IMG/VR virus record: IMGVR_UViG_2909309443_000004
Reading direction: 5' to 3' (one strand)
Length of the DNA: 35,146 nt
Origin: a virus
Lineage: Duplodnaviria; Heunggongvirae; Uroviricota; Caudoviricetes
Under the pieces are notes generated by a model. That model worked only from the letters and a program-made list of their open reading frames with translations, ran no database searches and was not told where the DNA came from. This document shows, in pieces, positions 2,747-23,050 of the stretch. The translations under genes and the position numbers were made by a program. Each line of letters opens with the position of its first letter. The first letter of the stretch is position 1.

Positions 2747-2795
2747 AAATACCTCTCTTGGTTGCAGTGCGGCGCGCGTGGCGCCGCGGTGGTGG

Positions 2796-4851: not shown

Positions 4852-4853
4852 TA

Positions 4854-5006
4854 TCAGCCCTCCCATATCTCGTTATCGTTGGCCACATCGCGAGCTTCTT
4901 TGCTGACGAAAGCCCACTTAATGCCTTCCTGTAAGGTGCGGAACTTCCAGCTCATGAATCCGCATGCAGTAACGCAGTACCAACCGTTGATGATTTTCCA
5001 CTGCAT
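4854..5006 (-). CDS. Small Trp/Cys-containing protein (50 aa), first gene of leftward early operon
   Basis: Manually translated minus-strand ORF MQWKIINGWYCVTACGFMSWKFRTLQEGIKWAFVSKEARDVANDNEIWEG; below 60-aa track cutoff; lies immediately downstream of the two OL operator palindromes. Confidence 0.3.
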   Translation of the reverse strand: MQWKIINGWYCVTACGFMSWKFRTLQEGIKWAFVSKEARDVANDNEIWEG

Positions 5007-5025
5007 AACTTGTTACCTCGGTCTG

Positions 5026-5102
5026 TTACCGTTGAGGTAATAATTATGCTTATTTGGTTTGGTGTCAATAGATATGAGTTAAAAAAATTACCCGTAAGGT
5101 AA
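5026..5102. promoter_or_regulatory. OL-like operator pair: TTACCGTTGAGGTAA (5026-5040) and TTACCCGTAAGGTAA (5088-5102)
   Basis: Two perfect 5-bp inverted half-sites separated by 5 bp, located between repressor gene terminator and start of leftward early operon. Confidence 0.55.
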
Positions 5103-5111
5103 TCTATCTGG

Positions 5112-5137
5112 CAATAAAAAAGCCGCCATGAGGCGGC
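5112..5137 (-). terminator. Rho-independent terminator downstream of repressor gene
   Basis: Minus-strand hairpin GCCGCC-tcat-GGCGGC followed by TTTTTTATT, 20-45 nt after repressor stop codon. Confidence 0.55.
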
Positions 5138-5159
5138 TTACTTGCTGAAAACTATAGTT

Positions 5160-5744
5160 TTATTGTTTGCTTTTTTCGTTCTGGTTGATGACAAATTCAA
5201 TGTAACTTTCGATCTTTGCCTTCTCTGTTTCAGGTAACAATGCGTAGCGCGAGCGGTCATAGTTGATAGTCGCGGGGTCGTGCGGGTGAATCAGTAATTC
5301 ATATCCGTGACGCCCAAATGCGGATGCAACATTCTCCAGGGTGGAAATGGAAACGCTGACCTCATTGTTTAACAGGCGGCTGATTGTTACCTGGGCGACG
5401 CCGGATGCGCGGTGAAGTTTTCCCTGCGTTGAAAGGTCGCGGCTTTCGCTCATCCAGCGTTCCAGGTTGTGAGCCGCCAGTTGACCAATGTCGCTTGGTC
5501 CGACAGGCTGAAAACCTTCCTGAGAAAGCGAGCGATCGATATCAAGCCAGTTACGGGGTTTATTGGCGGCAGCTTCAATTTTTCGCGCAACCTGGTCGCC
5601 GATAACCTTCTTGCCAAGAGCCCAGCGGTTTACCAGATTTGCCTGAGTTCCAAGTTTTTCAGCCATCCGCGTCTGAACACCATTGAATTCACGGTCGATC
5701 AAGTCGTTGAGATTTTGCCTGCGGACGTCCTGGATACTTTTCAT
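5160..5744 (-). CDS. Prophage repressor (CI-like), HTH protein without recognisable S24 peptidase domain
   Basis: 194-aa ORF divergent from Cro-like gene; two HTH-like segments (GVQTRMAEKLGTQANLVNRWALGKK and LHRASGVAQVTISRLLNNEVSVSISTLENVASAF); no Ala-Gly/Ser-Lys LexA-like cleavage module evident. Confidence 0.7.
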   Translation of the reverse strand: MKSIQDVRRQNLNDLIDREFNGVQTRMAEKLGTQANLVNRWALGKKVIGDQVARKIEAAANKPRNWLDIDRSLSQEGFQPVGPSDIGQLAAHNLERWMSESRDLSTQGKLHRASGVAQVTISRLLNNEVSVSISTLENVASAFGRHGYELLIHPHDPATINYDRSRYALLPETEKAKIESYIEFVINQNEKSKQ

Positions 5745-5799
5745 TTTCTGGAAAATCGCCTCATATCTGAATCAGAAGATGATTCAATTTAAAGCAATA

Positions 5800-5862
5800 T
5801 TACCCAACAGGTAAATGCACCTCATGGGTAACTATCCTTGATTTTTGTTACCTTATAGGTGA
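5800..5862. promoter_or_regulatory. OR-like operator region: TTACCCAACAGGTAA (5800-5814) and TTACCTTATAGGTGA (5848-5862) between divergent repressor and cro-like genes
   Basis: Same palindrome family as OL; intergenic 154-bp region with AT-rich promoter-like hexamers (TTGATT ... TGAATAT). Confidence 0.55.
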
Positions 5863-5898
5863 ATATTTATTATCTGAAATAAATATCAGGCAATAGCT

Positions 5899-6129
5899 AT
5901 GAGCGATAACGGACATTTCGATTTCAAAAAGCACTGGCTTGCACTTACTCCGGATGAGCGTGAAGCCTTCGCACAGGAAGCCGGAACGACGAGTCACTAT
6001 ATCCAGACTCACTTAACAGGTAAGCGCAAAATGCCAGGTAAGGTATTGATGGATGGGCTTTTTAAAGCCTGTAAATCAAGACAATGGCTGCGCTCAAAAG
6101 CAGAACTGGCATACTTCTTCTACTCATGA
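5899..6129 (+). CDS. Cro-like small HTH regulator
   Basis: 76-aa ORF divergent from repressor; HTH-like segment EREAFAQEAGTTSHYIQTHLTGKRKMP. Confidence 0.6.
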   Translation: MSDNGHFDFKKHWLALTPDEREAFAQEAGTTSHYIQTHLTGKRKMPGKVLMDGLFKACKSRQWLRSKAELAYFFYS

Positions 6130-6184
6130 TATCCAGCCACAACCCTCTGTAGACCGCCATCCGGCGGTCTTTTCATATCTATTC

Positions 6185-6199
6185 GTACCTCAAGGGTAA
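6185..6199. promoter_or_regulatory. Operator-like palindrome GTACCTCAAGGGTAA
   Basis: One-mismatch member of TTACC-N5-GGTAA family, 80 bp upstream of the 6280 ATG. Confidence 0.4.
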
Positions 6200-6279
6200 T
6201 AAAAAACCAAATATGGTTGATCTTTTTTTTGTGTCAGCACAAAATAACCGTAATCCCAATACTAATAACAGGGCTTACC

Positions 6280-6480
6280 ATGGAAATCATTACACGTATT
6301 GATGCCGCAAAGCGCGGACTTAAACGCTACTACACCGGAAAAACATGTAAGCACGGACATGACAGTGAACGCTGGGTTTACAACGGACACTGTGTTGAGT
6401 GCACCATGGAATCAAACCGTCGTATCAGGGCAGAGATTAAGCAGATCATGATTAATTCCTCCCCACAACATTCAAGCTGA
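6280..6480 (+). CDS. Small Cys/His-rich protein (possible zinc-binding regulator), cII position
   Basis: Track ORF 6217..6480 (TTG); likely ATG at 6280 (MEIITRIDAAKRGLKRYYTGKTCKHGHDSERWVYNGHCVECT...); C-x-H-x-H ... C-x2-C arrangement. Confidence 0.45.
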   Translation: MEIITRIDAAKRGLKRYYTGKTCKHGHDSERWVYNGHCVECTMESNRRIRAEIKQIMINSSPQHSS

Positions 6481-6495
6481 TAGCGGAGATTAATC

Positions 6496-7311
6496 ATGAG
6501 CAGACATGCAACAGATTGGGCCTGGGAGACAGATCCAGGTAGCTCGTCATTAAAGCTCATACTGCTCTCGATGGCTGACAGAGCCGATGAATATAACCTC
6601 TGCTACCCCAGCATAGAACGCCTCGTTAAAGACACTTGCCTGAATAAAAAAACCGTGCAGGCCGGACTTATATCGCTCATGAAAATGGGGCTTATTTCAG
6701 ATACCGGGGAGAGAAAGGGAGCGACAAAAAGAGTGCGGGTTTTCTCTCTTAATATAACCAAAAACGGGAACATTAAAGGCAACCGAGAGGGGGGCAATGA
6801 ACCCGAAAACGGTAATGTTACCGAAAACGGGAATATACCCAAAAACGGGATGTTGAATGATCCCAAAAACGGGATGTTGAATGATCCCAAAAACGGGATC
6901 CAGAACCAGTCATATAACCAGTCATTTAACCAAGAGAGGGAGAGCAGGACAAAAAACGGGGATTCTGTGCATCATGACCCCGGCGCAAACAACGCCGTGA
7001 TGAATAACTTTGTTCCTCCTGGTGGGCCAGGGCAATTAGGCAAATTTGTCATGCATGAACAATGGCAGCCATCAGATGACTTTCTTCGGAAAAGCTCATT
7101 GCAGGGGATCTACCTGGACAGTCTGCCAACGGCACAGGAACTTGCAGAGTTCAGAATTTACTGGATGGCTGAGGGTAAGGCATACCATCAGGCACAGTGG
7201 GAGCAGAAGCTGGCAAGGCGGCTGCAGATTAGCAGACAGAAGCAATCAACATTACCTGATAACAACGTTCCGCACTGGAACAGCCCTGAAGCATGGGAGG
7301 ATTTCTTGTGA
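6496..7311 (+). CDS. Replication initiator, lambda O-like N-terminal HTH domain with DnaT-like C-terminal region
   Basis: 271-aa ORF; N-terminus (..LKLILLSMADRADEYNLCYPSIERLVKDTCLNKKTVQAGLISLMKMGLI..) typical of phage replisome organiser HTH; contains iteron array in linker. Confidence 0.7.
   Translation: MSRHATDWAWETDPGSSSLKLILLSMADRADEYNLCYPSIERLVKDTCLNKKTVQAGLISLMKMGLISDTGERKGATKRVRVFSLNITKNGNIKGNREGGNEPENGNVTENGNIPKNGMLNDPKNGMLNDPKNGIQNQSYNQSFNQERESRTKNGDSVHHDPGANNAVMNNFVPPGGPGQLGKFVMHEQWQPSDDFLRKSSLQGIYLDSLPTAQELAEFRIYWMAEGKAYHQAQWEQKLARRLQISRQKQSTLPDNNVPHWNSPEAWEDFL
6757..6903. repeat. Iteron array (putative phage origin of replication) inside initiator gene: ~6 copies of CCAAAAACGGGA-like unit, including an exact 24-bp tandem duplication
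   Basis: Direct repeats accaaaaacgggaacatt / cccgaaaacggtaatgtt / accgaaaacgggaatata / cccaaaaacgggatgttgaatgat (x2) / cccaaaaacgggatcc; encode KNGN/ENGN peptide repeats. Confidence 0.65.
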
Positions 7312-8093
7312 ACAACGTTTTTACCGCGATACAAAACCGTGACGGAGAAGCCCTTTCTCGCATGTCAGGTTATGAGCATCAGTACACCAACAATGACAAC
7401 GTAGTGAACATGTCAGCAGAGAGGCTTGTTGATGCCCTTTTCAAACAGTTGAAACAACTGTTTCCGGCGGCAGTGGTAACCAACCTGAAGACGCCAGAGC
7501 AGGAAGTTGCTGCAAAACAGCAGTGGATTGCTGCGTTTGCCGAAGGGGGGATCCGAACCCGTGAACAGGTTTCTGCTGGTATGCGCCACGCCCGCGCCAG
7601 TGAATCTCCGTTCTGGCCGTCGCCAGGGCAATTTATCAAGTGGTGTAAAGACAGCAAGATGGTTCTTGGCGTCACCATTGACGATGTGATGGCGGAGTTT
7701 CACCGGTACAGCAAGGAAAAAAGTTTATATCCTGGTGGTCCCGAAAGATTCCCGTGGCGGCATCCGGTTATGTACTGGGTCGTATGTGATACACGCCGTG
7801 CAATGTATCAGCGCCAGCTTAGCGAGATTGAGGTTGAGAAACACGCGCGCAGGCTGCTCGATGATTGGGCGAAAAAGGTGGCTTCCGGACAGCAGATACC
7901 CGATCCGGTGATCAGCATACAGGCAAAGCCAGAGCCCATGAGTACGCCTCCGGACACAGGGAGAGACGTTTACCATCCACCAGGGCGAAGTTTCGGGTGC
8001 ATGCCTAACGCCGCCACCCTTGGGGGAATAACACCGGCGCAGTGGCTGATGGAGGAATACAGGCGGGGAAAGGCGGCAGGATTTATCAAGTAA
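7293..8093 (+). CDS. Replication protein P-like helicase loader (lambda P family)
   Basis: Segment FPAAVVTNLKTPEQEVAAKQQWIAAFAEGGIRTREQVSAGMRHARASESPFWPSPGQFIKWCKD closely parallels lambda P (..QWVLAFRENGITTMEQVNAGMRVARRQNRPFLPSPGQFVAWCRE..); alternative GTG start at 7308 overlapping O-like stop. Confidence 0.85.
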   Translation: MGGFLVNNVFTAIQNRDGEALSRMSGYEHQYTNNDNVVNMSAERLVDALFKQLKQLFPAAVVTNLKTPEQEVAAKQQWIAAFAEGGIRTREQVSAGMRHARASESPFWPSPGQFIKWCKDSKMVLGVTIDDVMAEFHRYSKEKSLYPGGPERFPWRHPVMYWVVCDTRRAMYQRQLSEIEVEKHARRLLDDWAKKVASGQQIPDPVISIQAKPEPMSTPPDTGRDVYHPPGRSFGCMPNAATLGGITPAQWLMEEYRRGKAAGFIK

Positions 8094-8130
8094 TACCAGC
8101 GCGATAGCGCATTTTTTTACGTCTATATGA

Positions 8131-8207
8131 TTACCTGGAAGGTAATAAAATGTTCTAATCTCTATTGATTTCATGTCTTATGTGGTTTTTAATTACCTAA
8201 GGGGTAA
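8131..8207. promoter_or_regulatory. Operator pair TTACCTGGAAGGTAA (8131-8145) and TTACCTAAGGGGTAA (8193-8207) upstream of 8211 ORF
   Basis: Two perfect TTACC-N5-GGTAA palindromes in 117-bp intergenic region after P-like gene. Confidence 0.5.
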
Positions 8208-8210
8208 ATC

Positions 8211-8523
8211 ATGAGAAAACAGATACAGGCTCTTGGTCGACTCAAAACAGGCCAGATGAACAAAACAGAATCTGCGTATTGCCAGCACCTTGAGCTGCGT
8301 AAACGTGCAGGGGAAATCGCCTGGTATCGATTCACCATCAGTGCCTGCAACACCAGAAGTTCAGGCAGCACCACAGGAGCAGGATGCCGCCGTTGTTGAT
8401 GCCCGCGACGAAGAAACTCGTCGCCGTCGCGCTGCTGCTGGTCGTAGTTCTACGCTGCTTACCGGTTCTCAGGGCGACACATCAACCGCTAATACCAGCG
8501 GTAAAACGCTGCTTGGTCAGTAA
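8211..8523 (+). pseudogene. Probable gene remnant / deletion scar: DUF1064-like N-terminal fragment (8211-~8330) joined out of frame to a Gly/Ser/Arg-rich C-terminal ORF (8290-8523)
   Basis: 8211 ORF begins MRKQIQALGRLKTGQMNKTESAYCQHLELRKRAGEIAWYRF (resembles N-terminus of phage DUF1064 proteins) then loses protein-like sequence; second frame ends ...RRRRAAAGRSSTLLTGSQGDTSTANTSGKTLLGQ; no intact product. Confidence 0.3.
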
Positions 8524-8537
8524 CCGGAGTCATTGAA

Positions 8538-10217
8538 ATGGCGGAAACAACTAAAGAGCGATTGAACAAACAGTTCGCACAACTTGAAAGCGAGCGTCAG
8601 TCGTTCGAGCCGCACTGGCGCGAGTTGAGTGATTACATCAACCCGCGTGGTTCCCGCTTTCTGACTTCTGAGGTCAACCGTAACGATCGACGCAATACAC
8701 GCATTATTGATTCGACCGGGACTATGGCGGCGCGCACTCTCGCCAGCGGCATGATGTCAGGCATCACAAGCCCCGCGCGTCCGTGGTTTCGCCTGGCTAC
8801 GCCAGATCCTGAAATGATGGATTATGGCCCTGTTAAGTTGTGGCTTGAGGCGGTGCAGAACCGCATGAACGATATGTTCAATAAGTCGAATCTCTATCAG
8901 TCGCTGCCGCAGTTATACGGAAGCCTCGGCACATACAGCACTGGCGCAATGGCGGTGCTGGAGGATGACGAGGACATCATTCGTACAATGCCATTCCCGA
9001 TAGGAAGTTACTACCTGGCTAACTCACCTCGTGGCAGTGTGGACACCTGTTTTCGCAAGTTCTCTATGACTGTTCGTCAGCTTGTTCAGGAGTTCGGGCT
9101 AAATAACGTCAGCGAATCCGTAAAAAGCATGTGGGAAAGCGGCACCTACGAGAAGTGGATTGACGTGATGCATTCGGTTTACCCGAACATTGACCGCGAT
9201 ACATCGAAGCTGGATAGCAAGAACAAGCCATTCAAATCGGTTTATTACGAGGTTGGTGGCGATAACGACAAGTTGTTGCGTGAGTCCGGATTTGATGAGT
9301 TTCCAATTATGGCTCCGCGCTGGGAAGTTAACGGCGAAGATGTTTATGGATCATCATGCCCGGGTATGCTGGCGCTTGGAGCTGTTAAGGCATTGCAGCT
9401 TCTCCAGAAGCGCAAGTCGCAGTTGATTGATAAAGCCACCAATCCGCCGATGGTTGCTCCGACTTCCCTCAAGAATCAGCGTGCCTCCCTTCTTCCTGGC
9501 GACATCACGTATATCGATCAGATTACTGGTCAGGATGGTTTCAGGCCTGCTTATCTGGTTAACCCCAGTACAGCAGATTTGGTGGCAGACATTCAGGACA
9601 CTCGTCAAATCATTAACAGCGCCTACTTTGTCGATCTGTTCATGATGTTGCAGAACATCAATACCCGCTCGATGCCTGTTGAAGCGGTGATCGAAATGAA
9701 AGAAGAAAAACTTCTGATGTTGGGGCCGGTTCTGGAGCGTCTGAACGACGAATGTCTTAACCCTCTCATTGACCGCGCTTTCTCGATGATGGTGCGTAAA
9801 AACATGCTGCCGCCACCGCCTGACGCGATGGAAGGTATGCCCCTGAAGGTCGAATACATTTCCGTCATGGCTCAGGCGCAGAAGTCTATCGGCCTGTCCA
9901 GTCTGGCGTCCACGGTTAACTTCATTGGTCAACTTGCGCAAGCGAAACCAGAAGCTCTCGACAAACTCAACGTTGATCAGGCGATCGATGCATTCGCTGA
10001 TATGTCCGGAGTGTCTCCAACCGTCATTGTTCCGCAGGAACAGGTTGAGCAGGCTCGCCAGCAACGGGCACAGCAACAACAGCAGCAACAAATGATGGCG
10101 ATGGGGATGGCGGCGGCACAGGGTGCCAAGACGCTAAGCGAAGCTAAAACTTCGGATCCGAGTGTTTTGTCAGCTATGGCGAATGCAGTTAGTGGTCAGG
10201 GTGGGCAATCACAATGA
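8538..10217 (+). CDS. Portal (head-to-tail connector) protein, T7 gp8-like
   Basis: 559-aa ORF at head of structural module; Gln-rich/Met-Ala-rich C-terminus (QQRAQQQQQQQMMAMGMAAAQGA...) as in T7 gp8; followed by scaffold and capsid genes. Confidence 0.8.
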   Translation: MAETTKERLNKQFAQLESERQSFEPHWRELSDYINPRGSRFLTSEVNRNDRRNTRIIDSTGTMAARTLASGMMSGITSPARPWFRLATPDPEMMDYGPVKLWLEAVQNRMNDMFNKSNLYQSLPQLYGSLGTYSTGAMAVLEDDEDIIRTMPFPIGSYYLANSPRGSVDTCFRKFSMTVRQLVQEFGLNNVSESVKSMWESGTYEKWIDVMHSVYPNIDRDTSKLDSKNKPFKSVYYEVGGDNDKLLRESGFDEFPIMAPRWEVNGEDVYGSSCPGMLALGAVKALQLLQKRKSQLIDKATNPPMVAPTSLKNQRASLLPGDITYIDQITGQDGFRPAYLVNPSTADLVADIQDTRQIINSAYFVDLFMMLQNINTRSMPVEAVIEMKEEKLLMLGPVLERLNDECLNPLIDRAFSMMVRKNMLPPPPDAMEGMPLKVEYISVMAQAQKSIGLSSLASTVNFIGQLAQAKPEALDKLNVDQAIDAFADMSGVSPTVIVPQEQVEQARQQRAQQQQQQQMMAMGMAAAQGAKTLSEAKTSDPSVLSAMANAVSGQGGQSQ

Positions 10218-10510
10218 CAGATTACGAAGATGATCAACTGAAAGAAGAAAACGCCCGTAAGCAACGTGACATGGCACAGCGTGAAATTGATGACATTCGC
10301 TTTGTCATGAGCAGTGAACAGGGGCGTCGCGTTGTCTGGTCGGTGCTGGAGAAAGGCCGTGTGTTTTCCGCTATCTCACCGATGGACGCTATGGCAATGG
10401 CATTTAATGAGGGGCAACGCAATCTGGCGCTGGAACTGTTTCAGCGCGTTATGGCGCATTGCCCTGAACAGTATTTGAAGATGGCCAAAGAGGCCAGTGA
10501 ACAGGAGTGA
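10214..10510 (+). CDS. Hypothetical head-assembly protein
   Basis: 98-aa ORF, ATG overlaps portal stop (ATGA); between portal and scaffold. Confidence 0.5.
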   Translation: MTDYEDDQLKEENARKQRDMAQREIDDIRFVMSSEQGRRVVWSVLEKGRVFSAISPMDAMAMAFNEGQRNLALELFQRVMAHCPEQYLKMAKEASEQE

Positions 10511-10512
10511 TC

Positions 10513-11208
10513 ATGAATTTATTTGAGCGTTTGCTGTATCGCCGTCTTTGCAATGAGCAACCAGTCGATGGTGGAGCAGCTCCGGCTGCGTCAGAACCGT
10601 CAGCGCCTGCAGGTGATAACCCTGCTCCAGTTGGTGATCCATCACAATCGGAAGGTGATAAGCCACAACCTGTTGCTGATGGCGATAAACCTGCTGATGA
10701 CAAAAAGCCTGAAAGCGATAAGCAGGGTGAAAAAAAGGACGGCGATAAACCGGATGGTGCGCCGGAGAAGTACGAGTTTCAGGCTGCCGAAGGCGTAGAG
10801 CTGGATACAGAAGCGTTAAAGGAATTCGAGCCGGTGGCGCGAGAACTAAACCTGACCAACGAGCAAGCGCAAAAGCTGGTTGATGCTTATCCGAAGATTC
10901 TGGCAGGTGTTCAGCAGCGCCAGGCAGAAGCCTGGCAGAAAACAACCGAGCAGTGGGCTGCGGATGTAAAAGCTGACAAAGAAATCGGTGGCGACAAGTT
11001 GATTTCTAACCTTAGCTCCGCACAGCGTGCGCTTGACCAGTTCGGGACACCTGAACTCAAAGAATATCTGAACACCACCGGGCTGGGTAATCACCCTGAT
11101 CTGGTCAAAACGTTCGTGAAAATCGGAAAGGCGATGTCTGAAGATGGCATGGTCACCGGTGGTAATGAAGGCCAGCGTAGTGCGGCCGAAGTGCTCTATG
11201 GCAAATAA
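10513..11208 (+). CDS. Scaffolding protein (acidic, low-complexity N-terminus)
   Basis: Track ORF 10507..11208; ATG 10513 follows AGGAG; Asp/Lys/Pro-rich repeats (GDKPQPVADGDKPADDKKPESDKQGEKKDGDKPDG) then helical C-terminus; position between portal and capsid. Confidence 0.65.
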   Translation: MNLFERLLYRRLCNEQPVDGGAAPAASEPSAPAGDNPAPVGDPSQSEGDKPQPVADGDKPADDKKPESDKQGEKKDGDKPDGAPEKYEFQAAEGVELDTEALKEFEPVARELNLTNEQAQKLVDAYPKILAGVQQRQAEAWQKTTEQWAADVKADKEIGGDKLISNLSSAQRALDQFGTPELKEYLNTTGLGNHPDLVKTFVKIGKAMSEDGMVTGGNEGQRSAAEVLYGK

Positions 11209-12085
11209 GAGAGGAGATAACAATGGCTGTTAAAGGCTTAACTGCGCTAACGCTGGCTGACTGGGGTAAGCGCGTCGATCCAAATGGGAAAGTCGATAAG
11301 ATTATCGAGCTTCTCAATCAAACTAACCCAATTCTTCAGGATATGCCTTTTGTTGAAGGAAACCTTCCTACCGGACACCGAACCACCATTCGTTCTGGTT
11401 TACCTTCTGCTACCTGGCGTTTGCTGAACTATGGCGTACAGCCAAGCAAATCAACCACAGTGCAGGTCACCGATTCCATTGGCATGCTGGAAACCTATGC
11501 TGAAGTCGATAAGTCTCTGGCTGATCTGAACGGTAATACTGCCGAATTCCGTCTGTCTGAAGACCGAGCATTTATTGAAGCGATGAATCAGGCGATGGCG
11601 CAGACACTGTTTTACGGTGATTCCAGCGTTAACCCTCAGCAGTTTATGGGACTGTCCTCCCGCTATTCCAGCCTGTCTGCGGGTAATGCTCAGAACATCA
11701 TTGATGCTGGTGGCACGGGTACAGATAACACTTCAATCTGGTTAGTGGTGTGGGGCGAAAACACCGTGCATGGCATCTTCCCGAAAGGACAGAAGGCTGG
11801 CATTCAGATGGAAGATAAAGGCCAGGTGACACTGGAAGATGCTAATGGCGGCAAGTACGAAGGTTATCGTACCCATTATAAGTGGGACAACGGGCTGACA
11901 TTACGTGACTGGCGCTATGTAGTTCGTATCGCAAACATCGATGTCAGCAATCTTTCAGAACCTTCCTCTGCCGCAAATATTGCGAAGTTGATGGTTAAAG
12001 GTAAGCGTAAACTGACCGCCGTATGTAGCCATCAGACGAGAATTGGTAACTTAGACGCCCATCTGATATAGACGGACATCTAAGT

Positions 12086-12511
12086 ATGGAATTACAGGAC
12101 TGGCGAAAAGAACCTCGTAAAAACTATTCGAATGAATTCAAACTTCGTATGGTGGAACTGGCATCACAACCTGGAGCTTGTGTTGCACAGATTGCACGTG
12201 AAAATGGCGTCAATGATAATGTTATTTTCAAATGGCTCAGGCTCTGGCAGAACGAAGGGCGTGTTTCGCGGCGTCTTCCGGTAACGACCTCTTCTGACAC
12301 TGGCGTTGAATTATTACCTGTAGAAATAACGCCGGATGAGCAGAAAGAACCTGTGGCGGCCATTGCGCCGTCTTTATCCACTTCCACTCAGACCAGAGTC
12401 AGTGCCAGTTCCTGCAAGGTGGAATTCCGTCACGGTAACATGACGCTGGAAAATCCATCGCCAGAGCTGCTCACAGTGTTGATCCGTGAACTGACCGGGA
12501 GGGGAAGATGA
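12086..12511 (+). CDS. IS66-family accessory protein TnpA (orfA)
   Basis: 141-aa ORF, HTH-like N-terminus (SNEFKLRMVELASQPGACVAQIARENGVNDNVIFKWLRLW); first ORF of IS66-type element. Confidence 0.8.
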   Translation: MELQDWRKEPRKNYSNEFKLRMVELASQPGACVAQIARENGVNDNVIFKWLRLWQNEGRVSRRLPVTTSSDTGVELLPVEITPDEQKEPVAAIAPSLSTSTQTRVSASSCKVEFRHGNMTLENPSPELLTVLIRELTGRGR

Positions 12512-12858
12512 TCTCACTCCCATCAGGTACCCGTATCTGGCTCGTTGCCGGCGTTACCGATATGCGTAAATCCTTCAACGGACTGGGAGAACAGGTACAA
12601 CATGTGCTGAATGATAATCCCTTCTCCGGTCACCTGTTTATCTTCCGTGGCCGACGGGGTGACACCGTCAAAATTCTTTGGGCTGATGCTGATGGTCTGT
12701 GCCTGTTCACCAAACGCCTGGAGGAAGGCCAGTTTATCTGGCCTGCGGTACGTGACGGCAAGGTATCCATTACCCGCTCGCAACTGGCAATGCTCCTCGA
12801 TAAGCTGGACTGGCGTCAGCCAAAAACATCCAGCCGTAACTCACTGACAATGTTGTAA
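12508..12858 (+). CDS. IS66-family accessory protein TnpB (orfB)
   Basis: 116-aa ORF MISLPSGTRIWLVAGVTDMRKSFNGL..., overlapping orfA stop (ATGA), typical IS66 Orf2. Confidence 0.8.
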   Translation: MISLPSGTRIWLVAGVTDMRKSFNGLGEQVQHVLNDNPFSGHLFIFRGRRGDTVKILWADADGLCLFTKRLEEGQFIWPAVRDGKVSITRSQLAMLLDKLDWRQPKTSSRNSLTML

Positions 12859-12888
12859 AAAACTCCTGACCGCATTATAAAAACGGTC

Positions 12889-14502
12889 ATGAGTCAGAAA
12901 TACCTCATTCGCATCGCAGAGCTGGAAAGGTTGCTCTCTGAGCAGGCTGAAGCCCTCCGTCAGAAAGACCAGCAACTGAGTCTGGTTGAAGAGACGGAAG
13001 CCTTCCTGCGCTCTGCACTGACACGTGCCGAAGAAAAGATCGAAGAAGATGAACGGGAAATAGAACATCTGCGGGCTCAGATAGAAAAACTGCGCCGGAT
13101 GCTGTTCGGTACCCGTTCTGAAAAACTGCGTCGTGAAGTTGAACTGGCTGAGGCTCTGCTGAAACAACGTGAACAGGACAGCGATCGTTACAGTGGGCGG
13201 GAAGACGATCCTCAGGTTCCCCGCCAGTTGCGACAGTCGCGCCATCGTCGTCCGTTACCGGCACACCTTCCCCGTGAAATACACCGCCTGGAGCCAGAAG
13301 AAAGCTGTTGCCCGGAGTGTGGCGGTGAGCTGGATTATCTGGGGGAAGTCAGCGCTGAACAGCTGGAACTGGTGAGCAGTGCCCTGAAAGTGATCCGCAC
13401 AGAACGGGTAAAAAAAGCCTGTACAAAATGTGACTGTATTGTTGAAGCACCGGCGCCGTCCCGCCCGATAGAGCGTGGTATCGCGGGCCCCGGATTACTT
13501 GCCCGCGTGTTAACGGGAAAATACTGCGAACATCTGCCACTGTATCGTCAGAGTGAAATCTTTGCCCGCCAGGGTGTCGAACTGAGCCGGGCCTTACTCT
13601 CCAACTGGGTTGACGCGTGCTGCCAGTTAATGACACCGGTGAATGATGCCCTGTACCGTTATGTAATGAACACCCGCAAGATTCACACTGATGACACACC
13701 GGTAAAGGTACTGGCACCGGGTCAGAAAAAGGCGAAAACAGGGCGTATCTGGACGTATGTCCGGGATGATCGCAATGTGGGTTCGTCATCTCCTCCAGCG
13801 GTCTGGTTCGCGTACTCGCCGAACCGGCAGGGGAAACACCCGGAGCAACACCTCCGCCCCTTCCGGGGTATCCTGCAGGCGGATGCGTTCACAGGTTACG
13901 ACAGGTTGTTCAGTGCAGAACGTGAAGGTGGTGCACTGACAGAAGTTGCGTGCTGGGCCCATGCCCGGCGAAAAATCCACGATGTATACATCAGCAGCAA
14001 AAGTGCGACGGCAGAAGAAGCACTGAAGCGAATCAGTGAACTGTACGCCATCGAGGATGAAATACGGGGATTACCGGAGTCAGAGCGTCTTGCCGTCAGG
14101 CAGCAGCGAAGCAAAGTGTTACTGACGTCGCTGCATGAATGGATGGTGGAGAAGAATGGTACGCTGTCGAAAAAATCCAGACTGGGCGAAGCGTTCAGCT
14201 ATGTACTGAATCAGTGGGATGCCCTCTGTTATTACAGTGATGACGGTCTGGCGGAGGCGGATAATAATGCTGCGGAAAGAGCGCTTCGTGCAGTCTGTCT
14301 CGGAAAGAAAAACTTTATGTTCTTTGGCAGCGATCACGGCGGCGAGCGTGGAGCACTGTTGTACGGGCTGATCGGCACCTGCCGTCTGAACGGTATCGAT
14401 CCGGAAGCGTATCTGCGCCATATCCTGAGCGTACTGCCGGAATGGCCTTCCAACCGAGTTGATGAACTCCTGCCATGGAACGTAGTACTCACCAATAAAT
14501 AA
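12889..14502 (+). CDS. IS66-family transposase (orfC)
   Basis: 537-aa ORF with N-terminal coiled coil/leucine zipper, CxxC zinc motifs (CCPECGGEL...CTKCDC) and DDE-type core. Confidence 0.85.
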   Translation: MSQKYLIRIAELERLLSEQAEALRQKDQQLSLVEETEAFLRSALTRAEEKIEEDEREIEHLRAQIEKLRRMLFGTRSEKLRREVELAEALLKQREQDSDRYSGREDDPQVPRQLRQSRHRRPLPAHLPREIHRLEPEESCCPECGGELDYLGEVSAEQLELVSSALKVIRTERVKKACTKCDCIVEAPAPSRPIERGIAGPGLLARVLTGKYCEHLPLYRQSEIFARQGVELSRALLSNWVDACCQLMTPVNDALYRYVMNTRKIHTDDTPVKVLAPGQKKAKTGRIWTYVRDDRNVGSSSPPAVWFAYSPNRQGKHPEQHLRPFRGILQADAFTGYDRLFSAEREGGALTEVACWAHARRKIHDVYISSKSATAEEALKRISELYAIEDEIRGLPESERLAVRQQRSKVLLTSLHEWMVEKNGTLSKKSRLGEAFSYVLNQWDALCYYSDDGLAEADNNAAERALRAVCLGKKNFMFFGSDHGGERGALLYGLIGTCRLNGIDPEAYLRHILSVLPEWPSNRVDELLPWNVVLTNK

Positions 14503-14799
14503 GCGTCAATACGGTGCTCCGTTGACGCTTACGTTAAAGCACTGCATCGCATTCCAAACCGTGGCATGGGTCGCCCGGTGTTCTACATGAACCGCACTGT
14601 AGGCCAGGCTCTTGATCTGCAATCTCTGGAGAAAACATCTCTGGCTATCAGCGTAAAAGAGACTGAAGGCGAGTGGTGGACTTCATTCCGTGGTGTACCA
14701 ATCCGTGAAACTGATGCGCTTCTGGAAACAGAAGCCCGCGTGGTGTAACGCCTGTTATTAACCTGTGGGTCGTAACAGACCCACTAATGGAGAAAGAAG

Positions 14800-15237
14800 A
14801 TGATCACCGACAAACTGTTGATGTTCTCCGAAGCACAGGCGGTAACTGATACCGCGGCTTCTACTGACGTAATCGATCTCGGTCCAATTGACGGAAACCG
14901 TCGCGATATCGGTGTGGGTTACCCGCTTGAGTTTTGGGTGCTGGTTAACGAAGCCGCCACGGCAAGTGGTGAGGCAACTGTAAACATCCAGTTGCAGACG
15001 AGTGAGAATAACAGCTCATGGTCCACTATTTATGATAGTGGCGCACTGGCAAAGGCTACCCTGACAGCAGGTAAACGAGTTGTTTCTGCAAAGGTTCCTT
15101 CCGGTGTTCAGCGATATCTGCGTGTTAACTACTCCGTCGCGACTGGCCCACTAACGGCCTGCAAATTCACTGCTGGTATCAATCTTGATGTTGATGCCAA
15201 TACGCCGTATCCGATCCGCTCAAAAGTAACTGGTTAA
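14800..15237 (+). CDS. Virion structural protein (possible capsid decoration/accessory protein)
   Basis: 145-aa ORF directly after capsid gene with GGAG RBS; beta-rich composition; function inferred from position only. Confidence 0.45.
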   Translation: MITDKLLMFSEAQAVTDTAASTDVIDLGPIDGNRRDIGVGYPLEFWVLVNEAATASGEATVNIQLQTSENNSSWSTIYDSGALAKATLTAGKRVVSAKVPSGVQRYLRVNYSVATGPLTACKFTAGINLDVDANTPYPIRSKVTG

Positions 15238-15238
15238 G

Positions 15239-15583
15239 GTGATATCGATGTCAGGTGAGAAACCAAGATACCGCGTTCTGCGCCTCTCTCATATCCATAA
15301 CACTCTGTGGCCGGAGGGGGCAGAAATCGAATACGAAGGTGAGCCTGGTAGCGCACTGGAACCTGTTAACGATGCAGCCAGACAGGCAAAAGCAAAAGTT
15401 GCAGGAAAGGTGTCAATGGCAGCAACCAGCACCAAAATCATCAACGATGTGTCAGATGATGGTGAACTGGATAAGCTCCGTGAAGAGTACGAATTGCTCT
15501 TTAACGAGAAGCCACACCATAACGCCAAAGCAGAAACGCTCCGCGAGAAGATCGCAAATAAGCGTAAAGAACTGGGCGTGTAA
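15239..15583 (+). CDS. Hypothetical structural-module protein
   Basis: 114-aa ORF (GTG 15239 or ATG 15248), charged/helical C-terminus; followed by terminator. Confidence 0.45.
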   Translation: MISMSGEKPRYRVLRLSHIHNTLWPEGAEIEYEGEPGSALEPVNDAARQAKAKVAGKVSMAATSTKIINDVSDDGELDKLREEYELLFNEKPHHNAKAETLREKIANKRKELGV

Positions 15584-15600
15584 GCCTCGCGAATCAGACA

Positions 15601-15622
15601 AGGGGCTTCGGCCCCTTTATTG
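15601..15622 (+). terminator. Rho-independent terminator (UUCG tetraloop hairpin)
   Basis: AGGGGC-ttcg-GCCCCT followed by TTTATT. Confidence 0.55.
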
Positions 15623-15633
15623 CAGGAGTGTAT

Positions 15634-15957
15634 ATGGAACTCGTAAACCTCAAAACCGGCACTGACAGCTACCAGGATGAGAGCGGAGAAACCAGAACTC
15701 GCGATGAATACCCGTGGGGGCTGTGCATCACTCTTAATAACGACACATTGAATAAGCTGAAGGCGCAACCTAAGGGCGTCGGAACAGAAGTGATGATAAC
15801 TGCAAAGGCTGTTATTCGAGGCCTGTCTGCCAGAGAAACTGACGATGGCGTTAATCGCAGCGCCGATCTGCAGATCACTGATATGGCGATCGCTCCTGTT
15901 TCCGGGGATGTAGAAAAATCAGCGGCTGAAACTCTGTACGGTAACGGAGGTGAGTGA
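15634..15957 (+). CDS. Hypothetical structural-module protein
   Basis: Track ORF 15628..15957; ATG 15634 is 6 nt after AGGAG; 107 aa. Confidence 0.45.
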   Translation: MELVNLKTGTDSYQDESGETRTRDEYPWGLCITLNNDTLNKLKAQPKGVGTEVMITAKAVIRGLSARETDDGVNRSADLQITDMAIAPVSGDVEKSAAETLYGNGGE

Positions 15958-16562
15958 TGGCCTCTGTAGTAGAGATCTGTAATCGCGCGCTGTCCAATAT
16001 TGGCAACAGCCGCAGCATTAACAGCCTGACGGAAGCCAGCAAGGAAGCGGGGGAATGTTCGCTGCACTTTGAGGCCTGCCGTGATGCTGTGCTTTCTGAT
16101 TTTGACTGGAACTTTGCTACCAAACGCGTGGCGCTTGCAGATACGAGCAATCCACCGCCTGACTGGGAATATGCGTACCAGTACCCGTCAGATTGTCTGC
16201 GCATTACTGAAATTATGCTTCCTGGTGTACGCAATCCAACAGCAGCAATGCGCGTTCAGTACGAAGTTGGTGCAGACACCAACGGAACAGGAAAGTTGAT
16301 CTACACAGACCAGCCTCAGGCATGGCTCAAGTATGTCTCTCGCGTTACAGATGTGAACATGTTTGATGCCATTTTTATGGAGGCGTTGGCCTGGCGTCTT
16401 GCGGCAGCTATTAACATGGCGCTGACTGGGAATGCAGACCTCGGTACGTTTGCCCTCAATATGTACAATCGCGTGATTCTTAGTGCTGGCTCGCATAGCC
16501 AGAATGAATCACAGGAACCACAGCCACCGGTTGATGAGTTTACCATTGCGAGGTTGTCCTGA
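15957..16562 (+). CDS. Tail tubular protein A / adaptor (T7 gp11-like)
   Basis: ~201 aa; ATG overlaps upstream stop; N-terminal ...EICNRALSNIGNSRSINSLTEAS... resembles gp11 N-terminus pattern; immediately precedes gp12-like gene. Confidence 0.5.
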   Translation: MASVVEICNRALSNIGNSRSINSLTEASKEAGECSLHFEACRDAVLSDFDWNFATKRVALADTSNPPPDWEYAYQYPSDCLRITEIMLPGVRNPTAAMRVQYEVGADTNGTGKLIYTDQPQAWLKYVSRVTDVNMFDAIFMEALAWRLAAAINMALTGNADLGTFALNMYNRVILSAGSHSQNESQEPQPPVDEFTIARLS

Positions 16563-18733
16563 TGGCTATCAGTTGGATCCAGCCCAGCTTTGCCGGTGGT
16601 GAGATTGGACCGTCGTTGTACGGACGTATCGACATGGCGAAGTACCAGGTGGCATTGCGCAAGTGCGATAACTTTATCGTGCGGCAGTATGGCGGCGTTG
16701 AGAATCGACCTGGTACGCGTTTTGTCGGTGCCGCCAAATACCCAAATCGGAAATGCCGCCTGATACCGTTCCAGTTCTCGACGGTTCAGACTTATGCTCT
16801 GGAGTTCGGACACCAGTACATGCGCGTTATCAAAGATGGTGCGTTGGTGCTGAACAGCAGCAATGTTATTTATGAAATTGCCACGCCATATACTGAAGCC
16901 GATCTGTTCCGAATTAAATTCACGCAAAGCGCAGACGTGCTTACGCTGGTTCATCCGGCATACCCGCCGAAAGAGTTGCGTCGCTATGCGCATGACAACT
17001 GGCAACTGGTTGATGTGGTAACGAAGAACGGACCATTTGAAGATATCAATATTGACGAGTCAGTGACGGTTTATGCCAGCGCCAGCACCGGGACAATTAC
17101 GTTAACGGCAAGCGCCTCTATTTTTGGCGCGGAGCAGGTAGGCAAATTGTTCTATCTGGAACAGCCTGCAGTGGATTCAGTGCCGGTATGGGAAACCAGT
17201 AAGAGTACGTCGATTGGCGATATTCGCCGTGCAGACAGTAACTACTATCGCGCCGTTACAGCAGGCAAAACAGGTACTTTGCGCCCTTCGCATACAGAAG
17301 GCACATCATGGGATGGCTGGGGCGGATCCGGTGATGATGATACTGGCATTGAGTGGGAATATCTGCACAGTGGTTTTGGCATTGCCCGTATCACTGCTGC
17401 AAATGGAACTACTGCAACTGCCGAGGTGATTTCCTATATCCCTTCGCAGGTAGTTGGCGAGGATAATGCCAGCTATAAATGGGCTAAATATGCCTGGAAC
17501 AGTGTTAATGGTTATCCTGGCACTGTTGTTTATTATCAACAACGTCTTTACTTCGCCGCATCGACTGCGTTCCCTCAGACTATCTGGGCTAGCCGTACCG
17601 GGGATTATAAGGATTTTGGCAAAAGCAATCCTACGCAGGATGACGACAGAATTATCTACACCTATGCCGGGCGTCAGGTTAATGAGATCCGCCACCTGAT
17701 TGATGTCGGTTCGCTGGTGGCACTGACTTCCGGAGGTGAGTACGTCATCACCGGCGACCAGAACAAAGTGTTAACCCCATCATCATTTGCATTCAGCTCT
17801 CAGGGATCAAATGGCTCGAGCAATGTCCCACCAATTGCCGTGGCGAATATTGCTCTGTTCGTCCAGGAGAAAGGCAGTGTTGTCCGTGATCTGGCCTACT
17901 CATTCGATGTTGACGGCTATCAGGGGAACGACCTGACCATCCTTGCCAATCATCTTTTTCAGAAGCACAGCATTGTTGACTGGTGCTTCTCTATTGTCCC
18001 TTACTCCAGCGCCTTCTGCATTCGTGATGACGGTAAATTACTGGTGATGACCTATTTGCGTGATCAGCAGGTTTTTGCATGGGCACCACAATCCAGTACC
18101 GGAAAATATGAAAGCACATGCAGTATCAGCGAAGGAAATGAAGATGCGGTGTATTTCGTTGTTAACCGAACCGTTAACGGGCAAACAGTGAGATACATCG
18201 AGCGACTGTCCAGCCGTTTATTTACCAGCGATGAAGATGCTTTCTTTGTTGATTCTGGCCTTAGCTATGATGGAAGAAATACGTCTGACAGAACGATGAC
18301 CATCACTGGTGGTTCTGGCGAATGGGATTACCGCGCGGAATATACAATCAGTATTTCTGGTGGTGCGTACTTCACCAGTAGTGATGTCGGTGCGCAACTA
18401 CAGTTCCCTTATACCGGCGCTGATTTATCTACCGGTAACGCGCTGGATATATTTGGTGACACTGCTCAGTTTGGCGCTCTTGATTCGCTGACGACGGTGA
18501 ATAACGCGCAACGCGAGGCTTACGGTTATCAGGTTCAGGCTGCCAACTATAAAGCAGAAGCCAGTTCAGCCCGTAAACAGGGGAATGTGGGAGCAGCAAC
18601 AACATTGCTCACTGCGCCTCTGAAGGCATACGGTGCGTACCAGATGTTTGGTGGGACGTGGAGTCCGTTTACTCAAAGCACCCCTGCGCCAATCGGGGCA
18701 GCAGCAGGAACCAGATTACCCGGAGGATTATAA
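16562..18733 (+). CDS. Tail tubular protein B / nozzle (T7 gp12-like)
   Basis: 723-aa ORF, start overlaps previous stop; size, position and beta-rich sequence consistent with podovirus gp12. Confidence 0.6.
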   Translation: MAISWIQPSFAGGEIGPSLYGRIDMAKYQVALRKCDNFIVRQYGGVENRPGTRFVGAAKYPNRKCRLIPFQFSTVQTYALEFGHQYMRVIKDGALVLNSSNVIYEIATPYTEADLFRIKFTQSADVLTLVHPAYPPKELRRYAHDNWQLVDVVTKNGPFEDINIDESVTVYASASTGTITLTASASIFGAEQVGKLFYLEQPAVDSVPVWETSKSTSIGDIRRADSNYYRAVTAGKTGTLRPSHTEGTSWDGWGGSGDDDTGIEWEYLHSGFGIARITAANGTTATAEVISYIPSQVVGEDNASYKWAKYAWNSVNGYPGTVVYYQQRLYFAASTAFPQTIWASRTGDYKDFGKSNPTQDDDRIIYTYAGRQVNEIRHLIDVGSLVALTSGGEYVITGDQNKVLTPSSFAFSSQGSNGSSNVPPIAVANIALFVQEKGSVVRDLAYSFDVDGYQGNDLTILANHLFQKHSIVDWCFSIVPYSSAFCIRDDGKLLVMTYLRDQQVFAWAPQSSTGKYESTCSISEGNEDAVYFVVNRTVNGQTVRYIERLSSRLFTSDEDAFFVDSGLSYDGRNTSDRTMTITGGSGEWDYRAEYTISISGGAYFTSSDVGAQLQFPYTGADLSTGNALDIFGDTAQFGALDSLTTVNNAQREAYGYQVQAANYKAEASSARKQGNVGAATTLLTAPLKAYGAYQMFGGTWSPFTQSTPAPIGAAAGTRLPGGL

Positions 18734-21246
18734 TGCCAGTCGTACCAACAGTATCCGGACGTCAGGTTGAGAGTCGTGGAGTTCAGTCAGCAGGCTTGCA
18801 GACGTTTTCTCAGCAAGGTATTGGTGATGCTTTTGTTCGGGCAGGGACAGAGGCAATTGATGTTTTGGGGCAGGCAAAACAGCGTGCCAATATCGCTCTG
18901 GCTCAGGAGGCATCTCTTAACCTCAGTCAGATAAGAAGCGATCTGCTGAATAATCCTGAAACAGGATTGCTTAACCTGAAAGGGAAAAATGCTATTGGAA
19001 AAGGCCATGAGTATACGCAGCAGTTTGATGCTCAGGTCGAACAACTGGCTATGTCGCTGCCGGATGAACAGGCTCGTAATGCTTTCATGCAGCAGGCGCA
19101 GCAGCAGCGCATTCAGTTCACTACGCAGGCCGGGCGACACGAGATAGGGCAAATTAATGCCTACGAAGAAGGCCAGTTTCAGGCGACACTGCTGAACAAT
19201 GGTAAAAATGCCGCAGCATTGTATGGCGACAACGCCGCATACGTATTGGCTAACAAGCAAACTTTCCAGCAAATTGAGGAGTACGGTGTTGCACATGGCT
19301 GGAGCAACGAGCAAATCCAGGCCAAGAAAATCGAGTTTAAAGAGAAGGTTGCTGATGCTGCATTGTCCCAGTGGTCGGCAAACAATGCGACCGCATTCAT
19401 CCAAAGTAATGGCGAGTTAAGTGATACTGCTGCTGGAGCTCGCCGTGCTGTAGCAGATAGTGACTCTTCCGAGCGTGCCCGTGGCATACGCAACAATAAC
19501 CCAGGAAATCTCGAATACAGCAAAACTAATCCGTGGGTAGGCCAGACCGGTGATGATGGTCGATTTGCTAAATTCGAAACACCTGAACACGGGATTCGTG
19601 CATTAGGGCGGAACCTGATGTCGTATCAGAGGCAGGGTATTGATACCGTCAGCGAGATAATTAATCGCTGGGCACCGCCTGCTGATAAAAATGACACTAT
19701 GTCGTATATCAAAGCAGTGTGCGAACAACTTGGCGTTTCTGCTGATGAGCCTCTCGATGCATCTAATCCTGATACCCTGAAGGCGCTTTGTGCAGCCATT
19801 ATCCATCATGAGAACGGTAGCCAGCCATACAGTGATCAGCAGTTAACTGCTGGTGTCAGTGCAGCACTTGGTTTATCAACAATTCCAACCAACACCAAAC
19901 GCTATACCGGTAATGCAGCATTCGATGCGGCATCTCCTGAGGCGCAGGCAAGTTTTATGCGACAGGCGGATCAACTGCGTCGGCAGCAGCAGGCTGAATA
20001 TAAAACGATGATTGACAGCCAGGTTCGCGATGCGACAGCTGCGTATATGCGTGGCGTTGAATTTCCTAACCCACCTGGTGAGGCTGATTTTATTGCAGCT
20101 TATGGCGTCAGAGAAGGAAACCTGCGATATACCGAGTTCAGAAATACGCAGATCGCCGGACAGTATATAGGCTCTTTCCGCAATATGCCGACAAGCAGCA
20201 TTACAGCATATGTTGAGCAATTACGCCCGGATACTGGTGAGACAGGGGAGGGGTATGCGGCACGCGCAGCTCTTTATGACAACGTTGTTTCGGCTGCAAA
20301 TCAGGTGATAAAGCAGCGGCAGTCGGATCCTGTGCAGTTCTCTCTTTCCTCCGGACAGGCAAAGCCTATCGACATGAGCAATAAGGATAACTTTGGACAG
20401 AGCGTTGCCTTGCGTGCTGCTCAGGTCAGTGACCTTGCTAAGTCATATGGCACTCCACTGACGTTCTTTTCCAAAGACGAGGCCAATCAAATCGGTGTTT
20501 TCTTTCGTGATGCGCCCGTTTCCCAACAGGCTGCATATCTCGATACCATCAGGCAAAGCACTGGTGGTGGGCAGGTGTATATGTCAGCACTACAGCAGAT
20601 CAGTGCCAACGCTCCATCTGCTGCCGTTGCCGGGATACTGATGGATAAGCCTGGTGGTATTTTGGCAGAAAAAAACTGGTTTAATCCGGATGTTTCCGTG
20701 TCTCCTGAAACCGCTGCGCAGACAATTCTTGCTGGCGCTGCGGCTCGTAAAGGTACTGATGATGCGAAAGGTATTCCGATGCCTAAAGATGCTGATCTTC
20801 GCCTTGAGTTTTCTGACATGGTGAAGGATGCATTTGCTGGTGACGCTCATGGGGCATCAATGGCATACGAGATCGCAAAGGATTATTACGCTGGTGTGAT
20901 GGCGAAAAAAGGCGTGGTATCAGGAGAAATTGACAATGATGTCTGGAAACAGGCTGTTAACGTAGCTACAGGTGGCGTGCATGACTATAACGGAATGGGG
21001 AATGTCCTTTTGCCGTGGGGAATGTCTGCAGAGCAATTCGATAAGCAGGTTAATCAGGCTTGGAATGAACAAGTTGTCGGCTCCGGGATAAAAACACCGC
21101 CTGGTCAGTATGGTTTGCAAAGTTACGGCGATAGTCAGTACCTGGTGAAACTTGGCGCTGGTTATCTGCTGAAAGATGATGGTTCTCCCGTTGTTCTTAA
21201 TCTGACACAGAAGCGTCAGAGATTCTCCGGAGATATTCCGCAATGA
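18733..21246 (+). CDS. Internal virion (ejection) protein, large
   Basis: Track ORF 18658..21246; probable ATG 18733 overlapping upstream TAA; 837 aa, Gln/Ala-rich; contains conserved-looking block RGIRNNNPGNLEYSKTNPWVGQTGDDGRFAKFETPEHGIRALGRNLMSYQ...IINRWAPPADKNDT. Confidence 0.55.
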   Translation: MPVVPTVSGRQVESRGVQSAGLQTFSQQGIGDAFVRAGTEAIDVLGQAKQRANIALAQEASLNLSQIRSDLLNNPETGLLNLKGKNAIGKGHEYTQQFDAQVEQLAMSLPDEQARNAFMQQAQQQRIQFTTQAGRHEIGQINAYEEGQFQATLLNNGKNAAALYGDNAAYVLANKQTFQQIEEYGVAHGWSNEQIQAKKIEFKEKVADAALSQWSANNATAFIQSNGELSDTAAGARRAVADSDSSERARGIRNNNPGNLEYSKTNPWVGQTGDDGRFAKFETPEHGIRALGRNLMSYQRQGIDTVSEIINRWAPPADKNDTMSYIKAVCEQLGVSADEPLDASNPDTLKALCAAIIHHENGSQPYSDQQLTAGVSAALGLSTIPTNTKRYTGNAAFDAASPEAQASFMRQADQLRRQQQAEYKTMIDSQVRDATAAYMRGVEFPNPPGEADFIAAYGVREGNLRYTEFRNTQIAGQYIGSFRNMPTSSITAYVEQLRPDTGETGEGYAARAALYDNVVSAANQVIKQRQSDPVQFSLSSGQAKPIDMSNKDNFGQSVALRAAQVSDLAKSYGTPLTFFSKDEANQIGVFFRDAPVSQQAAYLDTIRQSTGGGQVYMSALQQISANAPSAAVAGILMDKPGGILAEKNWFNPDVSVSPETAAQTILAGAAARKGTDDAKGIPMPKDADLRLEFSDMVKDAFAGDAHGASMAYEIAKDYYAGVMAKKGVVSGEIDNDVWKQAVNVATGGVHDYNGMGNVLLPWGMSAEQFDKQVNQAWNEQVVGSGIKTPPGQYGLQSYGDSQYLVKLGAGYLLKDDGSPVVLNLTQKRQRFSGDIPQ

Positions 21247-23045: not shown

Positions 23046-23050
23046 ATTAA

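Follow-up and report, generated by a model that had tools for sequence, protein, structure and literature searches.

Cryptic prophages of Escherichia coli K-12 are examples of decay by deletion and by the insertion of insertion sequences (IS). Among these sequences, elements of the IS66 family typically have imperfect terminal inverted repeats of ∼20–30 bp that start with 5′-GTAA. The role of their accessory proteins, TnpA and TnpB, is unclear, and the transposition pathway of the family is poorly characterised. The Uetakevirus vB_EcoP_ZX5 integrates at the 3′ end of guaA, and its attP/attB core is ATTGAGTGGGAATGATT (PMC9782041). Here we analysed the IMG/VR virus record IMGVR_UViG_2909309443_000004, a stretch of 35,146 nucleotides (the window), in which a complete copy of the IS66-family element ISEc23 sits within the major capsid gene of a phiV10-like prophage located at guaA. 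From the data described below we concluded that ISEc23 almost certainly hit the capsid gene of a prophage that was already cryptic, and that the insertion would be one more neutral lesion and not the disabling event.

RESULTS

ISEc23 is inserted at codon 260 of the major capsid gene

The inserted block occupies positions 12001–14532 of the window (2532 bp, + strand), and these coordinates, as given in a preliminary description of this DNA, are exact to the base. It starts with GTAAGCGT and ends with ACGCTTAC. Its left terminal inverted repeat (IRL; 12001–12024, + strand; GTAAGCGTAAACTGACCGCCGTAT) matches the reverse complement of the right one (IRR; 14509–14532, − strand) at 20 of 24 positions, consistent with the earlier claim of imperfect repeats with this starting sequence. 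The heptamer GTTAAAG lies directly outside both ends, at 11994–12000 on the left and at 14533–14539 on the right. It is the longest exact repeat at this position, where an exact 8-bp repeat is impossible. The insertion site falls in codon 260 of the major capsid gene, at ATG GTT AAA G|CA, and the element has the orientation of the late operon.

The block is 2532/2532 identical to a copy in NZ_OZ039848.1 that is annotated in RefSeq as ISEc23, and it has 0–4 differences from five other ISEc23 copies. It carries three intact open reading frames (ORFs), all on the + strand. The first, tnpA (12086–12511), encodes a helix-turn-helix accessory protein of 141 aa that matched PF01527 (5e-12) and NF047595 (IS66-like TnpA; 83 bits, cut-off 74). 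The second, tnpB (12508–12858), encodes an IS66 Orf2-like accessory protein of 116 aa that matched PF05717 (1e-36) and NF033819 (121 bits, cut-off 50); its start overlaps the stop of tnpA (ATGA). Downstream of both, tnpC (12889–14502) encodes a 537-aa IS66-family DDE transposase that matched PF03050 (5e-98) and NF033517 (452 bits, cut-off 180). Further Pfam domains in TnpC are zf-IS66, LZ_Tnp_IS66 and the IS66 C-terminal domain (PF13005, PF13007, PF13817). The protein is identical to the transposase of three other copies (L006–L008), annotated as WP_000080193.1, and the RefSeq name is ‘IS66-like element ISEc23 family transposase’, with tnpA and tnpB. The proposed assignment to the IS66 family with an orfA/orfB/transposase layout is thus supported by Pfam matches and by NCBIfam matches above cut-off for all three ORFs.

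We compared the ends of the element with those of eight other full-length copies lying in unrelated flanks. Six of these (in traB, pilP, eutP, a yagK-like gene and other sites) are each 2532 bp long, have the same terminal bases and are flanked by an exact 8-bp repeat. The other two, from genomes of other species, share these ends, with an 8-bp repeat around one and no repeat around the other. Because all eight share both ends and the length of 2532 bp, the boundaries of the element are not arbitrary, and none of the copies places them elsewhere. Judged from its sequence, the window element is an intact, canonical ISEc23, and this copy is probably active. By megablast, the element was matched in 4808 of 5426 complete E. 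coli genomes, with at least 80% coverage in 2414, and it is multi-copy, with a median of 3 matching places per genome. A scan of the contigs with the 30-nt left end of the element returned 5 loci, 2 of them with both ends, too few for statistics on repeat length.

In the insertion event, the DDE transposase TnpC, probably acting together with TnpA and TnpB, would have joined the ends of the element to staggered cuts in the capsid target, and gap repair would have duplicated the bases between the cuts. Scans of the whole window with Rfam (gathering thresholds) and for tRNAs gave no matches. A scan of 11000–15300 for promoter and terminator consensus sequences gave counts at the shuffle expectation, and we do not claim any IS-driven transcription.

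Removal of the element restores an intact capsid gene

The 5′ part of the major capsid gene (11223–12000, + strand) contains codons 1–259 and the first base of codon 260, and the 3′ part (14540–14748, + strand) runs from the last two bases of codon 260 to the stop (residues 260–328). In strain E8 (NZ_CM180514.1), which has the same insertion, the RefSeq annotation already treats the two halves as pseudogene fragments on either side of ISEc23, namely ‘major capsid protein, missing C-terminus’ and ‘phage major capsid protein, missing N-terminus’. When joined, the two parts of the window gene make 987 nt, i.e. 328 codons and a stop, reading ...ANIAKLMVKALHRIPNRGMGRPVFYMNR..., and the translation across the repaired junction is ...KLMVK|ALHRIPNRGMGRPVFYMNR.... 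It had been stated earlier that excision of the element with one repeat copy gives a continuous frame of ∼328 codons, which is what we obtained. The term ‘in-frame’ that was applied to the duplication holds only insofar as the frame is restored when the element and one repeat are taken out.

As it stands, the capsid ORF continues to 12071 and encodes a chimera of 282 aa, made of 259 native and 23 IS-encoded residues. The last 69 capsid residues, 21% of the HK97-like fold, are missing from it. Truncation of this kind would leave the gene dead; the protein is expected to be non-functional and unable to build capsids.

The reconstructed protein matched the Pfam profile PF20911 (GP7) over its entire length (residues 19–328 against positions 1–313 of 313; E=1.2e-149). 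With the major head protein p10 of phiV10 it shares 98% identity in an ungapped alignment, and it aligns end to end with the structures of BPP-1 (3J4U; 2e-130), 8CJZ (5e-88) and epsilon15 gp7 (3J40; 1e-84). The IS junction sits within an ungapped stretch of every one of these alignments, and the reconstruction is therefore colinear with its homologues, as the preliminary description required of an interrupted capsid gene. The interrupted gene is classed as a GP7/BPP-1-type HK97-fold major capsid gene, the full-length match being that of the reconstructed protein only.

The reconstructed 987 nt are identical at all 987 positions to an intact ‘major capsid protein’ gene (WP_044316662.1) in 14 complete E. 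coli genomes. These include the O6:H16 strains M9682-C1 and 2011EL-1370-2, FORC_031 and human diarrhoeal isolates. In all 14 the empty site is ATGGTTAAAGCACTG, with a single copy of the heptamer. The identity at all 987 positions puts the IS insertion far beyond chance. About 500 further genomes have capsid versions that are 90–98% identical. We also aligned the window without 12001–14539 to the IS-free prophage of FORC_031. They proved colinear throughout 32,209 bp, with 5 single-nucleotide polymorphisms (SNPs) and no indel, so that the element and one repeat copy are the only structural difference between them. Neither capsid part in the window differs at any position from the intact allele, and we agree with the preliminary description that the gene was whole until the element arrived and shows no decay after it. 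From the empty-site alleles it can be seen that a precise excision between the 7-bp repeats would bring back the capsid gene; it would not bring back the phage.

Conservation of the capsid gene in the 14 genomes was also considered as a sign of selection and this was rejected, since the whole 32-kb prophage differs by 5 SNPs, which indicates recent common ancestry.

The insertion is present in at least three assemblies

Between strain E8 and the window there are 3 substitutions over 34,590 bp. When the chimeric 282-aa ORF was looked up, the same insertion was identified in CP024266.1, which is identical to the window over 8223–15071. The look-up also returned the fragmented assembly JAAPPA010000009.1, in which the left junction is present and the contig ends 77 bp into the element. 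Among 5,426 RefSeq complete genomes, E8 alone covers both junctions, and this indicates that the insertion is recent and confined to a small sub-lineage. It could serve as a sub-lineage marker for O6:H16-type strains.

As ISEc23 is multi-copy, with several matching places in a typical genome, an assembler could have misplaced a copy and created an apparent insertion. The fact that two of the three differences between the window and E8 fall inside the element, as happens when repeat copies mix during polishing, would also fit such an artefact. However, CP024266.1 and E8, both complete assemblies, have identical junctions, the left junction is also present in a third assembly, which is fragmented, a direct repeat flanks the element, and the reconstruction is base-perfect. 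We consider an assembly artefact to be next to impossible, and treat the insertion as genuine.

The three substitutions between the window and E8 are at 13153, 13327 and 21746. Two of them lie inside the 2.5-kb element, where ∼0.2 would be expected by chance; in E8 both are G-to-A changes and give A89T and E147K in TnpC. These changes may stem from gene conversion, or from cross-talk between copies of the element while the E8 assembly was polished.

The prophage had lost packaging and virion genes before the insertion

The window runs from the integrase gene to yfgH, and the prophage lies between guaA and yfgI. A k-mer script identified the 17-bp repeat ATTGAGTGGGAATGATT at the guaA stop, ∼200 bp upstream of window position 1, and at 33969–33985 of the window (+ strand), where it forms the attR core. 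The best phage matches are phiV10, TL-2011b, ZX5 and their relatives, at 97–98% identity, all of the Uetakevirus type. Against phiV10 (NC_007804.2) the window falls into four colinear blocks with 97.2–98.3% nucleotide identity: window 1–8333 with phiV10 26927–35272, 8332–12000 with 3372–7040, 14533–18424 with 7034–10925, and 18412–25528 with 12222–19338. On these matches, the host element is assigned as a phiV10-like Uetakevirus prophage at the 3′ end of guaA, and the host lineage would be E. coli of the O6:H16 type.

Two of the block boundaries are deletions relative to phiV10. At the first (junction 8332–8333), ∼7.2 kb is missing, which removes the rest of the DUF1064 gene, p46–p55 (including the transcriptional regulator p55), terS, terL, p03, p04 and the 5′ end of p06. 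At the second (junction 18412–18424, with a 13-nt microhomology, ACCGG[A/C]GCTGAT), ∼1.3 kb is missing, with the loss of the 3′ quarter of the tail gene p15, all of p16 and the 5′ part of p17. When the phiV10 proteins were searched against the window by tblastn, TerS, TerL, p03, p04, p16, p46, p48, p53, p54, p55 and Oac were unmatched, and DUF1064, p15 and p17 gave partial matches only. The set of packaging and morphogenesis genes is therefore incomplete: TerS, TerL, p16 and p55 are absent, DUF1064, p15 and p17 are truncated, and the major capsid gene is split.

We also observed that, at the site of the ∼7.2-kb deletion (region 8211–8538 of the window), codons 1–41 of the DUF1064 gene are joined to the 3′ part of p06. 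The fusion ORF (8326–8523) is annotated in RefSeq as a ‘hypothetical protein’ (WP_047608207.1).

A 300-bp probe across each deletion was searched in complete E. coli genomes. The two probes match contiguously and at 100% identity in one and the same set of exactly 15 complete genomes, which are the 14 with an intact capsid gene and E8. Where phiV10-like prophages occur in other genomes (∼500), the halves of each junction probe lie apart. As the junctions are found in all 15 genomes of this clade and the element in one of them, both deletions predate the ISEc23 insertion by parsimony. Before the capsid gene was hit, the prophage is thus predicted to have been already unable to package DNA, and to have been without its late regulator and without virion components. 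The two shared deletions would have come first, followed by the lesions specific to single lineages, i.e. ISEc23, IS100 and nested deletions.

The preliminary description had called the insertion a recent inactivation, after which the prophage cannot make capsids. This holds for the gene, the loss of which is recent. It does not hold for the prophage, which was already defective through deletions common to the 14 IS-free relatives. One could argue that it was the insertion that made a functional, inducible prophage defective, given that nothing in the capsid gene was damaged beforehand and that the portal, protease, cement and staple genes keep their full length. This is very improbable: both terminase subunits, the p55 regulator and p16 are absent, p15, p17 and DUF1064 are truncated, and both deletion junctions are common to all 14 IS-free relatives, while the functional phage phiV10 has all of these genes.

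Decay of the prophage continues in sister genomes

The region 14533–18424 is intact at 100% identity in six genomes of the clade, including E8. The state of the other nine was read from match coordinates and from alignments. Eight of these genomes have a 1889-bp deletion that extends from the cement gene into the tail gene p15. In strain E1535 a deletion of 1148 bp extends from the staple gene into p15, and in M9682-C1 an IS100 element (IS21 family) is inserted in the tail-fibre gene. Several independent lesions in such a small clade fit the neutral erosion of a cryptic prophage, and argue against selection on any one of them.

Selection for the ISEc23 insertion could act in two ways, either by removing a costly capsid protein or through the 282-aa chimera, if this stopped superinfecting phiV10-like phages from assembling. 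At least three assemblies retain the insertion, and the reading frame of the chimera is open; neither fact supports selection directly. Against it stand the unrelated lesions in the same prophage of the sister genomes (the 1889-bp deletion in eight, the 1148-bp deletion in one and IS100 in M9682-C1), and the deletion of the late regulator, which makes expression of the capsid operon doubtful. We regard a selected insertion as highly unlikely and favour a neutral one.

The 1889-bp deletion (15074–16960; from M9682-C1, L003) and the 1148-bp deletion (15815–16960; from E1535, L002) have the same right breakpoint, 16960/16961, and ‘TA’ microhomology each. A shared right end with variable left ends suggests a hotspot, or an element that has since vanished, at 16960. 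IS100 in M9682-C1 lies at 34297–36815 of L003, corresponding to window ∼30534–30542, and the alignment overlaps by 9 bp at the junction.

The flanking repeat is one base shorter than at other ISEc23 copies

The direct repeat at the capsid site is 7 bp, as compared to exact 8-bp repeats at seven of the eight other full-length ISEc23 copies, the eighth being without a repeat. Such a repeat is the trace of an individual insertion and does not belong to the element itself. Our family-level statements on 8-bp repeats and on GTAA ends are based on the copies sampled here and on what is generally known of the family. The empty site, ATGGTTAAAGCA, contains both candidate octamers, GTTAAAGC and GGTTAAAG. 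The repeat might therefore have been a canonical 8-bp duplication of one of the two that later lost a single base at the junction of the element and its flank, or that is obscured by a recurrent base-calling error. The 8-bp repeats at the other copies and the presence of both octamers in the empty site speak for this, and so does the 8-bp repeat of an ISEc23 copy elsewhere (L009), which is GTTAAAGC. On the other side, the 7-bp state is identical in two independently deposited complete assemblies, and the loss of 1 nt exactly at the junction with nothing else changed is no more parsimonious than a variable stagger. We consider the loss or misreading of one base a serious possibility, if not quite the probable one.

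Two more speculative readings can be named together. The 7-bp repeat may reflect a genuine 7-nt staggered cut by the ISEc23 transpososome, or the 282-aa chimera may act as an assembly poison against superinfecting phiV10-like phages; we hold these to be quite improbable. A 7-nt cut, if true, would bear on how the TnpA/TnpB/TnpC machinery of the IS66 family measures its target. For the mechanics of this family, the 7-bp repeat is a minor curiosity.

The ISEc23 insertion L009 is unrelated to the one described here and lies in NZ_CM128671.1; its repeat is the same octamer, GTTAAAGC, that is present at the capsid target. ISEc23 target sites might have a preference for an A/T-rich core. The target duplications and flanks of the top BLAST matches resemble those at the capsid site. 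We do not take this as a sign of target preference, because these matches were ranked by coverage of a query that contained the flanks.

Accessory region and other features of the prophage

The accessory and tail-fibre region of the window (25529–31990) is unlike phiV10, and several small ORFs in it are without a family match. The tail fibre, a protein of 866 aa, carries an S74 chaperone domain at its C-terminus, and at its 5′ end the identity to phiV10 is only 82%. The change in the tail fibre and the absence of oac imply a predicted receptor (O-antigen) specificity other than that of phiV10.

In the same region, a TacA-like antitoxin gene (27640–27924, − strand; DUF1778, PF08681, 2e-19) overlaps the start of a gene with a BRO-N domain (27030–27680, − strand) by ∼40 nt. 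A GNAT (TacT-type) toxin partner is absent from the window, and phiV10 is without a TacA-like gene at the corresponding position. The recombination module (2796–4558; 10847–12606 in L001) is annotated as two overlapping genes, for RecT (942 nt) and a PD-(D/E)XK nuclease (822 nt). In phiV10 the annotation has a single RecE/RecT fusion gene of 1761 nt, and one of the two has a frameshift or an annotation difference.

DISCUSSION

Our data indicate that the capsid gene in the window was lost recently, in a prophage that two older deletions had already made cryptic. Several points weigh against this account. For the order of events we relied on parsimony among 15 genomes and not on a dated phylogeny. 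The label ISEc23 comes from RefSeq annotation and not from the ISfinder reference sequence. The repeat is 7 bp, against 8 bp at seven of the eight other copies, for which either a varied stagger or a later loss of one base would account. Finally, we infer both the neutrality of the insertion and the non-function of the truncated protein. The label that we propose for the region is that of a cryptic remnant of a phiV10-like prophage whose capsid gene is disrupted by ISEc23, and not that of a recently inactivated live phage.

The structure itself is already known, as it is annotated in RefSeq in E8, and IS insertions in prophage structural genes are commonplace, so there is nothing new in kind here. 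Only two features are mildly unusual: the 7-bp repeat, and the two independent deletions of sister genomes that have the same right end. The locus is of little importance beyond its correct annotation, and the clade provides a tidy, small example of stepwise prophage decay.

Comparison with known systems

The window copy resembles other ISEc23 copies in its length of 2532 bp, in its termini (GTAAGCGT...ACGCTTAC) and in its tnpA/tnpB/tnpC layout; the insertion differs only in its 7-bp flanking repeat. The prophage is like phiV10 and the other Uetakevirus phages (vB_EcoP_ZX5, TL-2011b) in gene order, with the int-to-replication, portal-to-tail and injection-protein blocks, in the use of the guaA 3′ end and the same 17-bp core, and in its capsid protein, which is 98% identical. 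It differs from phiV10 in being without ∼7.2 kb (terS, terL, p46–p55, p03 and p04) and ∼1.3 kb (the p15 3′ end, p16 and the p17 5′ end), in having another tail fibre and accessory region, in the absence of the oac O-acetyltransferase gene, and in its IS-split capsid gene. With the decay of cryptic prophages of the E. coli K-12 type it shares lineage-specific IS insertions and deletions with microhomology at their junctions, and between the two there is no difference of principle.

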